The position numbers were made by a program, and so were the translations under genes. From an archaeon (lineage in GTDB: Archaea; Asgardarchaeota; Thorarchaeia; Thorarchaeales; Thorarchaeaceae), in assembly GCA_024276825.1 (NCBI GenBank), contig JAJRWI010000042.1, forward strand, positions 1 through 64,000: DNA of 64,000 nucleotides, in the 5' to 3' direction. The notes beneath the pieces are model-generated. The model worked only from the letters and a program-made list of their open reading frames with translations. It was not told the origin of the DNA and did not search any database. Of this stretch, positions 1 through 62,575 are shown in pieces. How positions within the stretch are numbered: position 1 is the stretch's first letter; every line of letters begins with the position of its first letter.

Positions 1-3000
1 AGTCACGGTCTCGGTCCCTACTGCCCATGTGCTCGTGTCGAGATCGAATATCAAGTCCGTGGGGGAGAGGTCACTCTGAGCACTATAGCTTGTTGGGGTG
101 AATGTGAAGCTTGAAACATCTGATGCTGTCAGAGTTGTGTCAGTGTCAGTGTCCGTGATCACAAGGGTCACTGTGGTTGTCATTCCATATGGAGTAGTAA
201 AGTCACCTTGCACTGTCACTGATGTGTAGTGGTTTCGTATGATCACCTGAAAATCAAAGTTGTCTGGATCATAGTAAATTGAACCTGTAAGTGAGGCAGA
301 TAGCGTGACCGATTCAGTTCCAACACTCCATGTGTTTGTTGATAAGATCACATCATAACTTGATGGGGATGGGATGTTCTGTGCAGAGTAACTAGTCGGA
401 GTGAATGTGAATGAAACCACATCTCCTATTGGCACTGATGTTCCAGTATCTGTGTCAATTAACAGAATTGTAACTGGGGTGTCCATTCCATAGGGTGTTG
501 TGAGATCAGCATTTACTGATATACTTGCATAATGTTTTCTCAAAGTGAAAGTGACATTAACACTAGCATCCTCAATATAGGCGCCGGATTTTGTAGCATT
601 GAAAATATACCAATGGTCACCAACACTAAGAGAGCTTGTTGACAATGAGATGTTATACATTCCATTTCCTTGAGCCACAATTGTCACAGGTGTGCCATTT
701 GCAAATGTAATTGTAGCATCGGTGATGGGATTACCGGTATATGTGTCTGTGAATATCAGAGTAGCAGTAAAGTCAAATCCAACAGGTGTAATGTCCACAT
801 TGCGATAACTCAAGTCTGTATCATGATAGAGGTCGATATCGAAAAAGTCGGTAGCATTATTGTAGTATTGATGATAGGATGAAACCGTAATATGCCATCT
901 GCCATTTGTTCCAAGATCGCTTGTATTTAGAGTCTTGCCATATCTACCATCACCATAGTCTTCAAGAGTGATCTCGGTTGGAGTTCCAGAAACGGTCCAA
1001 TTCATCTTCACCATTGCACCAGCAATGCCCTGAGAGTTGACATCATCAGTCAGACTGTATTCAATGTATATCATCTCTCCAGCGACCTTGTATGCAACTT
1101 TATCACCAATTGCATCACCAGGCGCATTTAGGGTCAGTGAACTGTCATGTTTTACAATGAAAGTCCGCTCAAAGAGTCCTGTCTTATTTGTCACTGTGGC
1201 CCCAGTGTCATTGTAATAGACACTGACCGTCCACTCACCAGCATCAAATGTTGTGTCAATTATCTTTTTGATTGAGAGTTCTGGAGAAGTTCTCTGTTGT
1301 TCAGTTCCTACTGTGATGAATGTGCTAGGTGAGTTGATATTATTATACTCAGTAGATATCCAACCAGCAGACCTTTGAGCAGTGGCAATTCTGATTTCAT
1401 CTAGCCTTCCGGTAAGGAATCCTTTTCCACCAGGTATCTGAATGTCTGCCCAGCCACCACCTAGTCCCCAATGACTACTAAATGATAGATTAGCGGCCCC
1501 AGAGGCTCCAACACTGCCAGTGTTAGTATCAATACCGCCATCAATGTATATTGTATCATTAGAAGTTGAAGCACTGTCCAGGAATATTGCGAAGTAGTGC
1601 CAACCAGCAGACCAGAAGGTCCTAGTTGTCCATTTGTAGAAGTAATTCCCTGAGTTTTCAATCTTGAATACCAGTGATCCAGCAGACACTGAGGTCTGGC
1701 CATAATCTGTGCCCACCAGTGCGATATGCATATCGTTGTTATCGTCCAAGTACTTTTCCATGATCAGTTGGGTTGTTGTTGAGGACGAGGAAAATGCCGA
1801 AGGCAGATAGAACCATCCAGAAATCCAGACATCGCCCTCAGGATTTAGATTCTCGGTTTCATTAATGTAAATGAGATCGTCAATACCATCGAAACTCTGT
1901 CCATATCCAGCAATTCCAGTGGCCCTTGAATTCTCAATCTGATTACCATCATGTTGTCCTGATGTGGAGTCATAATGTATTGTGCTGTTAGTCTCATCAA
2001 CCGCATTTTCAGCAAGATGCCAAGTAGCTGAATATCCATTTGACCATACTGCGTCTGGATATTCTTGAGAACCAACAACTGGGTTTCCATAATACATGGT
2101 TAGAATAGTATTAGAAGTACTGGAAAGATTACATTTCACCCATGCAATGAGATGCCCTGTTGACTGATCAAACAACTCAATCTCATGAGGCAGAATATTG
2201 CCATTTGAATCAACAAACAGGATGTCATCACCATCAGCCTGGACCTTGGTCTGTAGGTCAGTATCGGTGATGTCAATCATGACGGGGAAGTTCATCAGAT
2301 CATCATCAACATAAGATGAGTTGATAGTGATTGGCTTTCGATATCTGAAGGAGGGGTATAAGTGAGTAGAGGTGTCGGTTGTAGTATTGTATGTTTCATA
2401 GAACTCGTTTCCTGCAGGATCTGAAAGAATGAATCCCACTCGTGAGTTGGTAACAATTGGAGTGGTTGCCTGAACCTTCAATACATCATTAATATTCAGT
2501 GTCGCGGTGTTTCCTAGAGTCTGACCGGATATCCCAAGCTTTACATCCTCCACATAGTTCCAGCTGGAGAACTTTATCGTCCAAACACCCCATACATCAA
2601 CAGCCGAGGAATAGGCAGTAATGGTGCCACCTTGATAGTCCCAATCAATACCATATGTCTTAGACTGGTTGAGGGGATTATACACTGCATCGGGGCGCCA
2701 TTCAGTCATTGGATATTCAACCTGAAAGCCAATTGAGGATGTAGAGGCAGGCGGGGAAACCAGAATGTTTGCGGTCCATTCAACAATTGAAGCATTGACT
2801 ACATAAAATGAAGTACCATCATTCATGTTCTCGTCTAGGCTCTGGCCCGAACCAGCAATATCTAGGGTCAGAGTTGTATCCAGAGTAAGTGGGTCTACTG
2901 AAGTTGTAGAAAACACTACTCGCGCAGAGTCATCATTAGTCCATGTGTCCTGAAGAGTTTGCTCCGTGCCAACTGAAATAAATGATTTGGGATCATCTTG

Positions 3001-58710: not shown

Positions 58711-59727
58711 TCACTTGTGTTTGAGACCTGTCCACAATGCATCAGTTTCTGGTCGTGGCAGTAATGAAGATTGTGAGTCCTTGATGAGTAGTCGTCTTGC
58801 TGGGTCATTAATGGTCTTCCCAATCACAGTTGCATCAACGCCTGACCTTGTGATGGCATCAATCACCTCATCAACCTTGGAATGACTACAAGTCAGTAGC
58901 ATAGTCCCACTTGATATCAGACTATAGACATCTACTTCAAGAGCATCACATATCTTGCTAGTCACAGGATGAATAGGTATCATATCATGATTAATCTTGC
59001 AACCCACATTGCTTGCATCACAAATCTCATGAATGCCCCCAAATACTCCTCCCTCAGTAGGATCATGCATCGCAGTCACATAGCCTGTTTCAAAAGCGGC
59101 AATGCCTTCAGCAACGACACTGATTTGAAACCGCATCTGCTGGGCTTGATAGAGAACATCATCAGGCACCTTTCCATGAAGATAGGAACTACATTCGGTG
59201 GCCAAGATTGAAGTCCCCTCAATAGCAGCAGTTTTTGTCATGATTATTGCATCACCTGGCTGTGCTCCAGAAGAGGTGACATATTTGCCATGTTTGGTCA
59301 ACCCATGCATGATTCCAACAATTATCGGGTGTGAAACCGCCTCAGTTATCTCAGTATGGCCTCCCACTACAGCGATGCCAAGTGATCTTGCAGCCTCATC
59401 TATCTGCAACATTATTCTTTCAAGGTCTTTAGAGGTAGAGCCATCAGGGAGAAGTATTGATGCAAGAAACCATCGAGGGCGTACGCCAAAGGTAGCAATA
59501 TCATTGGCATTGATATGAACTGCAAGCCAGCCAACATCCTCAATTGACCCCGTGATTGGATCGGTGCTTGCAATGAGATCCTTATCGCCAATCCTGATGA
59601 CAGATGCATCCTGACCTATTTCTGGACCGATGATCACATCCGAGTCGCTAGCACCAAGGTTCTTGAAGACTATCCGTGTCAATATTTCTGGAGGGACTTT
59701 TCCTGGCTTCAATTGAACATGCTCCAT
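58711..59727 (-). CDS. AIR synthase-related / HypE-like protein
   Basis: GKVP, IGQDA, STDPITG, NANDIAT, GGHTE, MHDPTEGG, LISSG. Confidence 0.85.
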   Translation of the reverse strand: MEHVQLKPGKVPPEILTRIVFKNLGASDSDVIIGPEIGQDASVIRIGDKDLIASTDPITGSIEDVGWLAVHINANDIATFGVRPRWFLASILLPDGSTSKDLERIMLQIDEAARSLGIAVVGGHTEITEAVSHPIIVGIMHGLTKHGKYVTSSGAQPGDAIIMTKTAAIEGTSILATECSSYLHGKVPDDVLYQAQQMRFQISVVAEGIAAFETGYVTAMHDPTEGGVFGGIHEICDASNVGCKINHDMIPIHPVTSKICDALEVDVYSLISSGTMLLTCSHSKVDEVIDAITRSGVDATVIGKTINDPARRLLIKDSQSSLLPRPETDALWTGLKHK

Positions 59728-59879
59728 TGGTTTGGTGCGCATGGGTCCTGTTGCTGATGCATGAAAAGACAATTCATTGACACCCAGACTGGGCTCTCCT
59801 TGCTCACTATGACACCAGCCATTTGTTCCCATGCGCCGCTGGATTAAGAACAGTATCCGCATATAACGGATTTCATGAG

Positions 59880-61367
59880 TCACCTTGCAAGATATTCTTC
59901 TGCGGCCTTTAGGGTTGCAGGATCGATTTTTCTGACTGCTTGTGTCGAAGCGATAAACTCTGACAGGACCGAGTTCATCTTCATGACCTCATTGGCAAGA
60001 TAGGTTCTTCCACCGGCAATTGAAGCAATGAGATAGGAAGAGAATGACTCACGAAACTTTGGAACAGAGAGTATTGTTTCTACAACTGATGAGAAACCAT
60101 CCTTTTTCATTCTTAGAAATGTTGCAAGCTCTAGCGCATCATGGTAGGGCCTCTTGAGAAGCTTTACCCAATGAATCTGTCCAGTGTTTACATTTATCGT
60201 CACTAGTCTTATTCCATTCTTCTTAACAAGACGAGCAGCTTTGACAAGGTCTCGCACGGGTGTGAATTGAGCATGGCCTGGACCCACAGACTGAGCAAGA
60301 GGTATGTTTGGTGCAAAGTCGGAAACCATAATTAACAAGGGTTCAATATTCTTGTTTCTCATCCTCTCACGACGAACAGTTTCTATTGCCTTCATAATGC
60401 CCTCTGCAAGAGGTGTGAGACCAGAAATCCGCAGTCGAGCCAAACCCCTATAGAGCTTGTTCCAGTTAGTCGTTGGAGTCTGAACTTCAATCGCACCACT
60501 GTCCTTGAATGCAATAATCCCTACACGATCCTTTGTTCCACGGGTTTCGTGCTCGATGCGGCCAATTATCTTTCGGACCTCTTTCATATAGCCCTTCATT
60601 GACAAGCTGACATCTATTATCAGAATGATTGTGAGCGGTGTCTTTCCTGCAAACACTTTCTCACGTATATCGCTTGGCTTAATCTGAATCCTGCTACCGG
60701 GAACAAACTTTCCAGATCTTGCCACTGCCGCCATAACAGTTGCGTGAACATCAATACTTGAGGCCTCGCCAGTCGGTTGACGAGATCTGAATGGCCGCCC
60801 ATGTGTACTATCGGTTGATACCATTGAACCTAGGGATCTCGAACTTGTGCTTCTGTCGATCCAGCCGCCAGATGAAACTCGAGACTTGACCATTGCTCGA
60901 ACCCGCAGCTCATCTAAGTCGAATAGTTCCTCACCAGAATCGAGGTCAGGAAGCTTTACAAAGAATCCAGAGTCGATAGTCAGAGGATCACGAATGTCAG
61001 ACTTGGAGCCATAGAGCTTAGACTCGGGCTTGGACTCGTATCTTCGAGTAGCAGTGCCCCATTCGTCCCCAGGCTCTGGTTTAGCACGGCCAGAATCCAC
61101 AGTATCGATACCGGCAGCGGGTCCAGAAACCCGTTTCATCATTATGCGAAGCCAGTACTTGATGAGTTTATAGATAAATGGAATATATACTATCGTATTG
61201 ATTATTAGAATTGGCAATGGAGGCAAAATTCCTATAGAAGCACCAAGCAACACATTGAGGGGAGAGAAGAATATCCATGAGATATATGTAAATGCCACAA
61301 TCAACATGATTGAGATTATTGTCCCTTTTATGGGATTGCCACGGGGCTTTCTGACATTACTTACCTT
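59880..61367 (-). CDS. ChlD-like C-terminal part: transmembrane hairpin + vWA domain, probably reached by -1 frameshift from the upstream ATPase
   Basis: IDVHATV...IREKV linker, [22 protein letters not shown]. Frame open from 61373; first ATG at 61307 has no clear SD. Confidence 0.8.
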
Positions 61368-62575
61368 TTTTTTTTACCCTTCTGATCTCCCCACTGGGCA
61401 AAAGTGTCCTGTCGACCAAACGAACCACCACTATAACGAGTCCCACTGCCCGCCTCTTCAGATTCGTCATCCTTGTCTTTCGGAACCTCTGTGGGCGACT
61501 TTCGCTTGGTCTTCTTCTTCGAGAGTTCAGCAGCCTTCACAATAGCTGTCTCAATCTCACTGGGGGCAGGAGGTTCCAATAGTCCACCACGTCGTGTTCG
61601 ATGACTGAGAGTCAACTGGGCGGCCAGCTTCATGTCCTCCAGAGAGACCTCAGTCCTGCCCTCAAAAGCAGCCATTGTGATTGAGGTCTTGCTGATTATT
61701 ATATCGGGCCTTACGCCATCCACCTCAAGAGCATCACATGCCATAGCAATCGCATGCAACTTGTCTTCTGGAAGCATCACATTGGGCAATATCTCACGAG
61801 CTTTGACTATTCTGTTCCGAAGATGTTCCTGTTCTTCAGCCCATTTCTCCCTGAACTCTAGTGGGTTCTGTTCAAAGTTCAAGTTGCGTCTGACAAGTTC
61901 CATCCTATCCTCAATCGTGAGGTTTCTGCCAACAGCGACATGAAGTGGAAACCTATCCAGCAATTGTGGTCTGAGCTCCCCCTCTTCAGGATTCATTGTA
62001 CCAATCAGAATGAAGTCGGAGGGATGCGAAATTGAGATACCCTCACGTTCGATAACATTGAACTTTGTAGCAGCAGCATCCAGAAGGTCATCAACCAAGT
62101 GATCGGGTAAAAGGTTCACCTCATCCACATATAGAACATTCTGATGGGCCTCAGCCAGAATGCCAGGCTTTAAGGCTTGAATACCTTCTTGCAAGACACG
62201 TTCAATATCAATCGACCCAATGAGCCGGTCCTCAGTTGTCGACAGGGGAAGATTAACAACACGCATCTTCCTTCTGACAACTTTCAGTTCCTCACCCGCA
62301 TGCTTGCGTCTCTTGCAGTCCTCACACATCATCTCTTCATGATAGGGATTGCATCCAAACTTGCACCCCTCGACAACATCGACCTCAGGAAGCAGATCAG
62401 CAAGGGCACGCACTACGGTTGTCTTTCCAGTCCCTTTGGGTCCGGATATCAGCACGCCACCAATTCGGGGATTTATCCCATTCAGAATCAGGGCAAGTTT
62501 GAGCCGTTCAAGGTCAACCACAGCACTAAAGGGCAAGACAACACGTGACGCTTCAGTCAAGTTCATTCGTCCCAT
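61361..62575 (-). CDS. ChlI/BchI-like chelatase AAA+ ATPase
   Basis: [49 protein letters not shown]. Confidence 0.93.
61364..61375 (-). other. Candidate programmed -1 frameshift (slippery A10 run)
   Basis: GGT AAA AAA AAA AGG TAA. The -1 frame has TAA at 61376-61374 and is then open into the vWA ORF. Confidence 0.75.

Follow-up and report, generated by a model that had tools for sequence, protein, structure and literature searches.

Positions 59,880 to 62,575 of the 64,000-nucleotide stretch analysed here (the window; contig JAJRWI010000042.1 of a Thorarchaeaceae genome) carry on the minus strand two consecutive open reading frames (ORFs), ORF1 for a ChlI-type AAA+ ATPase and ORF2 for a vWA domain protein, which meet in different frames at a run of ten adenines (A10). 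Judged from its sequence, the locus is very probably one recoded gene of the published fs-chlD kind, and we estimate at about 0.87 the probability that two products are made from it by a programmed shift at the A10 run. The initial annotation had read the junction as a programmed -1 transition on poly-A that links the ChlI-like ATPase with the vWA ORF in the manner of chlD, and this core reading is supported by the two halves of a ChlD-type profile found in the two ORFs, by the layout of the junction across the archaeal family and by selection on the -1 frame.

In the mechanism that we propose, standard decoding would stop one codon past the A10 run and give a soluble ChlI-type AAA+ ATPase of 404 amino acids (aa). 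A fraction of expression events would move to the -1 frame inside the run and give an 898-aa protein, in which the AAA+ module is followed by a membrane hairpin of two helices, a linker predicted to be disordered, a vWA domain with its metal ion-dependent adhesion site (MIDAS) and, at the end, a small helical domain. On the model of ChlI/ChlD and of MoxR-vWA pairs such as NorQ/NorD, both forms may share one AAA+ ring assembly, which the long form would tether to the membrane and in which the MIDAS site would hold a client. We infer that the two proteins are actually made, and likewise their ratio, the machine that slips, their co-assembly and their function. The mechanism is already published for chlD-type genes and the locus adds no new one; what is unusual about the locus, and common to the whole family, is the membrane hairpin together with a large chelatase subunit that was not found. 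Our literature search found no paper linking fs-chlD recoding to Thorarchaeota.

The junction between the two reading frames

On the minus strand the junction reads ...CAG AAG GGT AAA AAA AAA AGG TAA GTA ATG TCA..., and the C-terminal end of ORF1 is ...QKGKKKR. The 0 and -1 frames overlap over only about 10 nucleotides (nt), namely the A10 run and the two G's after it, and since TAA stops bracket the frames around the run, the shift must fall within these nucleotides. A further TAA in the +1 frame at 61359-61357 leaves the -1 frame as the only one that continues past the run. The first ATG, GTG or TTG of the -1 frame is the ATG at 61307, which lies 54 nt past the ORF1 stop, and the 22 codons from the run to this ATG are without a start codon. 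The initial annotation had placed the A10 run and both bracketing stops correctly and had rightly confined the frame overlap to the slippery site. Its product sizes of 404 aa and about 898 aa were borne out as well, ORF1 having 404 aa and a -1 slip inside the run yielding 403 + 495 = 898 aa; naturally in-frame homologues have 893-913 aa.

The profile matches of the two ORFs divide along the same line. In the ChlD-type model TIGR02442 (641 positions), positions 2-350 were matched by ORF1 and positions 409-616 by ORF2, and ORF2 also matched positions 345-575 of TIGR02031. Because both halves of TIGR02442 are covered by the two ORFs, the locus has the form of a ChlD-like gene split exactly at the linker.

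The run itself stands out in its genome (2.94 Mb assembly, 98.3% complete). We counted A/T runs and recorded the lengths of the ORFs upstream and downstream of each. Runs of at least nine A or T number 27 genome-wide, below the simple random expectation of about 47, and the A10 run is the only one of them sited between two long ORFs, the others being located in frames that are short or non-coding, close to gene starts or in-frame within ORFs. Outside the run, the Lys codons of the gene are AAA in 15 cases and AAG in 43, and the AAA share in the genome is 38%. The A run is thus kept despite AAA being the minority Lys codon, which indicates that the homopolymer is maintained at the nucleotide level.

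A purine-rich, GGAAGG-like stretch lies immediately 5' of the run in most relatives, and the window has CAGAAGGGT at 61376-61384 of the minus strand. It encodes Q/E-E/D-G, and its conservation may act at the protein level.

Table 1. Features of the probably recoded locus and its downstream neighbour, in window coordinates.
Feature	Position	Strand	Basis
A10 slippery run (A_AAA_AAA in the 0 frame, or putative RNA-polymerase slippage tract)	61366..61375	minus	assembled sequence
ORF1, 0 frame, 404 aa, stop included; ChlI-type AAA+ ATPase, predicted short product	61361..62575	minus	ORF and profiles
0-frame stop TAA, a single codon (AGG) 3' of the A10 run; terminates the short product	61361..61363	minus	sequence
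TAA closing the -1 frame just 5' of the run; its two A's are the first two A's of the run	61374..61376	minus	sequence
+1-frame stop TAA (f+1 distance 7)	61357..61359	minus	sequence
-1-frame reading (ORF2), 497 codons and stop; would make up the last 495 residues of the long product (898 aa)	59880..61373	minus	ORF
Predicted membrane hairpin, ORF2 residues ~14-80, Lys/Arg-rich segments at both flanks	61134..61334	minus	hydrophobicity and AlphaFold2
vWA domain with intact MIDAS (D254-x-S256-x-S258, T320, D352)	60159..60635	minus	Pfam VWA_2 and VWA, AlphaFold2
Conserved C-terminal helical domain, ORF2 residues 410-496	59886..60146	minus	AlphaFold2 (pLDDT 84-92), family alignment
AIR-synthase-family (HypE/ThiL-like) gene, same strand, downstream	58711..59883	minus	Pfam AIRS, AIRS_C

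Conservation in the family and alternative explanations

We searched for the gene in 79 sampled genomes of the window's archaeal family and compared the junction at the nucleotide level in 43 distinct ones. The gene was found in 68 of the 79 genomes, and an A run occupies the homologous position in all 43. Conservation of the run and of the frame offset in orthologs, a check that the initial annotation had called for, was confirmed: a -1 shift is required at a run of seven to eleven A's in 37 of the 43 genomes (A9 in 27, A10 in 7, A11 in 2 and A7 in 1). Both other genomes of the window's genus, one of them a single 3.2-Mb contig, need the -1 shift; they have A9 followed by 29 nt where the window has A10 followed by 28 nt, so that run and spacer add up to the same total. 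The 0-frame stop of the relatives lies 1-14 nt past the run in most genomes and 59 nt past it in one genus. Distant bacterial fs-chlD loci (L021, L058, L062, L069 and L076) share a layout of poly-A, a -1 offset and (G)TAAAAAAAAA, with the TAA at the start of the run.

One genome (L120) has an A8 run and requires a +1 shift. It carries one A fewer than its three congeners, all of which are A9 with a -1 offset, and we rejected its layout as a second conserved signal, since it is a one-off that the congeners do not share. In the contig of a further relative (L001 / L098) a run of N's in the linker region, at about 2020-2029 in L001, is followed by an apparent second frame change, which we rejected as a second recoding site because it reflects a scaffolding gap.

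Several observations weigh against a programmed origin of two products. Five of the 43 genomes are in frame at the junction, with a run of A10 or A11. Assemblies are known to be unreliable in the length of homopolymers, which may explain some of the A8, A10 and A11 outliers. The matches to the ChlD-type models are below cut-off, at 463 + 103 bits against 779 for the two halves of TIGR02442 and 251 + 76 bits against 500 for those of TIGR02031. Moreover, another Asgard family (L129-L133; G145, G134, G160, G090 and G184) has in-frame proteins of 873-892 aa, ordered AAA+, membrane hairpin and vWA, without an A run, and a search of four of its genomes (G145, G134, G160 and G090) found no separate chlI. 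The long form there seems to work without a short partner, which calls the need for a short form into question. The five in-frame genomes and this run-less Asgard family together indicate that the long form alone can suffice.

The in-frame genomes are also what an explanation at the DNA level would build on. If replication added or dropped an A at the run, the long membrane-anchored form would be toggled on and off, and the two forms would not both come from one template. Every in-frame genome indeed exceeds a sibling species with the same flanks by exactly one A (L111 vs L103, L101 vs L109, G072 vs L093), a relation seen across four genera, and one genome is short of one A; DNA polymerase, too, is prone to slip on poly-A tracts (PMC3711429). 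A free switch would, however, scatter the states more evenly than we observed, with 37 of 43 consensus assemblies, from 16 genera, all in one out-of-frame state. A long-held off state would also let the vWA ORF decay, but ORF2 aligns from its first residue across 29 genomes with a mean column identity of 71%, and its MIDAS columns are invariant or nearly so in this 29-sequence family alignment. We consider it improbable that such phase variation accounts for the locus, although it may act on top of recoding.

Programmed recoding predicts that the -1 frame is read as protein from the run onward, and the family alignments bear this out. The peptide that follows the run, KK-x-P-x-x-[VI]-R-N-P-[RQ]-G-[DN]-P-I-K-G-T-I-C-A-I-M..., is conserved in 38 of 38 loci compared and in the 29-sequence alignment. 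Over the 12 codons that end at the I-K-G-T motif, the first, second and third codon positions of the -1 frame have column entropies of 0.56, 0.33 and 1.49, which shows that the codons from the run to the first possible start are under purifying selection as protein in this frame. The first ATG, GTG or TTG of the -1 frame comes only after the conserved 12-codon stretch in 27 of the 35 loci that are out of frame. Independent initiation fails to explain a conserved coding stretch upstream of any start, and entry from ORF1 can explain it.

The same data count against two separate genes, in which translation of the vWA protein would begin independently at ATG 61307, or through re-initiation past the ORF1 stop, and no fusion would be made. 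Such an arrangement would agree with the two ORFs that gene callers would list and with the ATG available just beyond the ORF1 stop, and split chlI and chlD pairs exist in other archaea (L010 and L027). Yet the start-less codons before this ATG are conserved as protein (K-K-x-P-x-x-[VI]-R-N-P-R-G-D-P-I-K-G-T) with varying third positions, the ATG lies inside the first membrane helix, in-frame relatives read through the same residues and the -1 frame opens exactly at the run, and we hold two genes to be very improbable. Least probable of all is an assembly or sequencing error, or a recent pseudogene, in what would be a continuous 898-aa ORF with A11: homopolymers are error-prone and an additional A puts five relatives in frame, but an error in one genome cannot explain a -1 layout shared by 37 independently assembled genomes, both same-genus ones included, both ORFs are intact and conserved, and the stops of the two non-productive frames lie within 7 nt of the run.

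Possible slippage by ribosome or RNA polymerase

The shift at the run could arise in two ways. In the ribosomal option, a tandem -1 slip would move back by one base on the A_AAA_AAA of the 0 frame; in the polymerase option, one extra A would be inserted into the transcript at the run. The initial annotation had pointed to short stems downstream of the run, and these did not hold up. Folding of the window's own 90 nt after the run was no better than that of shuffled sequences (z -1.18), and RNAalifold found 0 conserved pairs downstream of the run in 28 aligned homologous junctions. A downstream stimulatory RNA structure was rejected on both grounds.

That no stimulator was found downstream of the run favours slippage by RNA polymerase. 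So does the length of the run, which is at least nine in 41 of 43 genomes though seven A's suffice for the ribosome. The in-frame alleles point the same way, as they match exactly a DNA copy of the transcript with one added A and have early stops in both other frames, 2-29 nt away in those in-frame genomes whose frames were tabulated; any slip from an in-frame template would therefore still yield the short form. In E. coli reporters carrying members of a Mg-chelatase frameshift gene cluster that includes archaea, shifting reached 63, 40 and 10% for A11, A9 and A7, respectively, and these assays did not separate a ribosomal from a transcriptional mechanism (PMC3711429). Since reporter efficiency rises with run length, and since one relative (L086) relies on an A7 run, no firm call for the polymerase can be made. 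We rate transcriptional slippage on A9-A11 no less likely than a ribosomal slip, with a slight preference for the polymerase, and both may contribute.

That relative (G077) and its congener L091 (G019) show how the site can vary. L091 has two runs in the overlap window, an A9 and then an A7 directly before the 0-frame TAA. L086 has lost the first run and is left with the A7 directly followed by TAA, a natural minimal site that could help to separate ribosomal from transcriptional slippage.

Both mechanisms are documented within one gene family for dnaX, where E. coli uses a ribosomal -1 frameshift on A_AAA_AAG and Thermus thermophilus uses transcriptional slippage on A9 (PMC3711429). The dnaX tau and gamma products resemble the present case in that a poly-A tract gives long and short AAA+ forms that enter one complex; they differ in that the shift truncates the dnaX protein and extends the protein here, and the protein families are unrelated. 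One paper (PMC8037382) and a review (PMC8211752) give fucA1 as the only -1 frameshift experimentally established in Archaea so far, and the review of archaeal recoding lists the chelatase case only as "suggested" (PMC8211752). Slippage by RNA polymerase at this locus, if true, would give Archaea a natural example of programmed transcriptional slippage, and the A9-A11 site, being conserved and free of structure, is well suited to decide between slippage by the archaeal RNA polymerase and by the ribosome.

Predicted products, function and neighbouring genes

ORF1 matches the Pfam families AAA_5, Mg_chelatase and AAA_lid_2 and carries the Walker A motif GPKGTGKT and the Walker B motif DEVN. It scores 398 bits against the BchI-ChlI model TIGR02030, over positions 2-332 of 337 and below the equivalog cut-off of 467, and 344 bits against the solved ChlI structure 6l8d, solved ChlI/BchI structures ranging overall from 294 to 344 bits. 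Matches to bpMoxR (23 bits) and AAA_3 (18 bits) were below cut-off, AAA_5 reached 52 bits and the ChlI-type models scored far higher. The genome has no other ChlI-type gene. The short product would be a soluble ATPase of the ChlI-like type that ends in a charged tail. Between Walker A and Walker B, at about residues 71-88 (window positions 62300-62370, minus strand), there are four cysteines in the pattern C-x3-C ... C-x2-C, possibly a small metal-binding insert.

The shifted part of the long product opens with the membrane hairpin, a feature that the initial annotation had not noted at this junction. AlphaFold2, applied to ORF2 alone and not to the fused 898-aa protein, placed helices at residues 14-36, 38-42 and 53-80 of the hydrophobic segment (pLDDT 82-91), followed by a low-confidence linker at residues 82-206 and a Rossmann-like beta/alpha fold of the vWA domain at residues 247-405. 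Lys/Arg-rich flanks of a membrane segment face the cytoplasm under the positive-inside rule. The hydrophobic segment has such flanks on both sides, and we infer that it is a hairpin anchor and that the AAA+ and vWA domains are both cytoplasmic. A Foldseek search with the vWA model returned vWA domains at an E value of 1e-6, among them NorD of NorQD complexes. The C-terminal helical domain (residues 410-496) had no match in the Pfam search. Gene callers break the locus up into a "magnesium chelatase" and a vWA protein whose start they place at the Met within the membrane helix, and under this split annotation the real 898-aa long product would be missed in about 60 Thorarchaeota genomes.

The recoding of chlD-type genes is well described. 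Poly-A -1 recoding of magnesium chelatase/chlD genes was predicted and tested in 2013 (Antonov, PMC3711429) and extended by Kuznetsov in 2022 (PMC9227772). As in those fs-chlD genes, ChlI-type AAA+ and vWA halves are joined here by a -1 poly-A shift at the domain boundary, one gene would give a small and a medium subunit (a prediction in the present case), and in-frame fused relatives exist. The class features present at the locus are thus the ChlI-type AAA+ N-terminus, the out-of-frame vWA/MIDAS C-terminus, the poly-A run at the boundary and the conserved offset. The downstream stimulatory structure, which the papers describe at fs-chlD slippery sites as a usual and not an obligatory feature (PMC9227772), is not conserved. 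The class is known in bacteria and in archaea (Methanocaldococcus and Methanococcus), and the present lineage is Asgard (Thorarchaeota). Where ChlD has an acidic, Pro-rich linker, the long product has a two-helix membrane hairpin. Further development of fs-chlD recoding was reportedly published by Antonov in 2020 in Mol Biol Evol (doi 10.1093/molbev/msaa081, cited in PMC9227772).

The function of the products is probably not porphyrin chelation or metalation. The large subunit CobN/ChlH (PF02514) gave 0 matches in the window's own genome and was found in 0 of 61 family genomes, and it was detected in 5 control genomes. With PF02514 not found, the locus lacks a defining mark of a class I chelatase, and its products are probably not chelatase subunits. 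Frameshifted chlD in genomes without chlH or cobN has been termed "stage 1", of unknown function (PMC9227772), and ChlI/ChlD-type motors without a ChlH/CobN partner are an acknowledged open question (PMC9227772). A tentative proposal, which we hold to be less probable than its opposite, is that the products are not part of a chelatase and form instead a membrane-tethered AAA+/vWA machine with its own client, the ratio of soluble to anchored form being set by RNA-polymerase slippage.

Two groups of known systems invite comparison. ORF1 aligns with ChlI/BchI over the whole AAA+ module (ChlI-ChlD and BchI-BchD; 6l8d, 8osf and 1g8p), and the long form has the same order of AAA+, linker and vWA/MIDAS. 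Unlike in those systems, ChlH/CobN was not found here, the D-like subunit is predicted to be membrane-anchored and its AAA+ module is identical to the I-like one, not a diverged paralogue. The pairs NorQ/NorD, CbbQ/CbbO and RavA/ViaA likewise combine an AAA+ ring with a vWA adaptor that carries a MIDAS and docks a client, in many cases to mature a metal site. Those MoxR-vWA systems are each encoded by two separate genes, without recoding. ORF1 is ChlI-type by sequence, and we use these systems as a working analogy, not as a statement of membership.

The hydrophobic linker recurs in a limited set of lineages. Classical ChlD linkers in 80 comparison loci are acidic and Pro-rich, not hydrophobic, and comparable hydrophobic linkers occurred there in only two Bathyarchaeia loci and one Thermoproteales locus. 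Other Asgard families have in-frame proteins of 860-1000 aa with hydrophobic linkers. The membrane hairpin, common to in-frame homologues of other Asgard lineages, some Bathyarchaeia and Thermoproteales, suggests that the client is located at the membrane and is not a porphyrin.

When we compared the neighbours of membrane-type chlD loci in other lineages, a CDC48-type ATPase was the only gene to recur, at one Thermoproteales locus and in one Asgard family. In the former it lies directly 3' of the membrane-type chlD (L050:6487-8706, plus strand); in the latter, the membrane-type chlD-like gene is closely followed by genes for a DUF4350/GIFT-domain protein and for a CDC48-type double AAA ATPase (L129; 2726-3616, plus strand, and 487-2637, minus strand). 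As a shared partner the CDC48-type gene is uninformative, since it is ubiquitous and multi-copy in archaea and its position may be a coincidence.

In the window, the gene downstream of ORF2 belongs to the AIR-synthase family. It lies 3' of the recoded gene in 17 of 17 family loci, and the whole neighbourhood (thrC, surE, epimerase) is syntenic. No AIR-synthase-family gene was found beside chlD-like genes in the loci examined outside the family. Given the family-wide synteny and this absence elsewhere, we rejected it as a functional partner. The GTG listed as its start creates a 4-nt overlap with the stop of ORF2; since the alignment with relatives begins only at about residue 25-58, this start is probably too far upstream and the true one further in. 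The gene scores 116 bits against HypE and 109 bits against ThiL, both below cut-off. The genome holds a separate true HypE, a SelD and an sll0787/methanogenesis-marker-2-like paralogue, with no ThiL above cut-off, and the AIR-synthase-family gene may be the organism's divergent ThiL, a housekeeping function.

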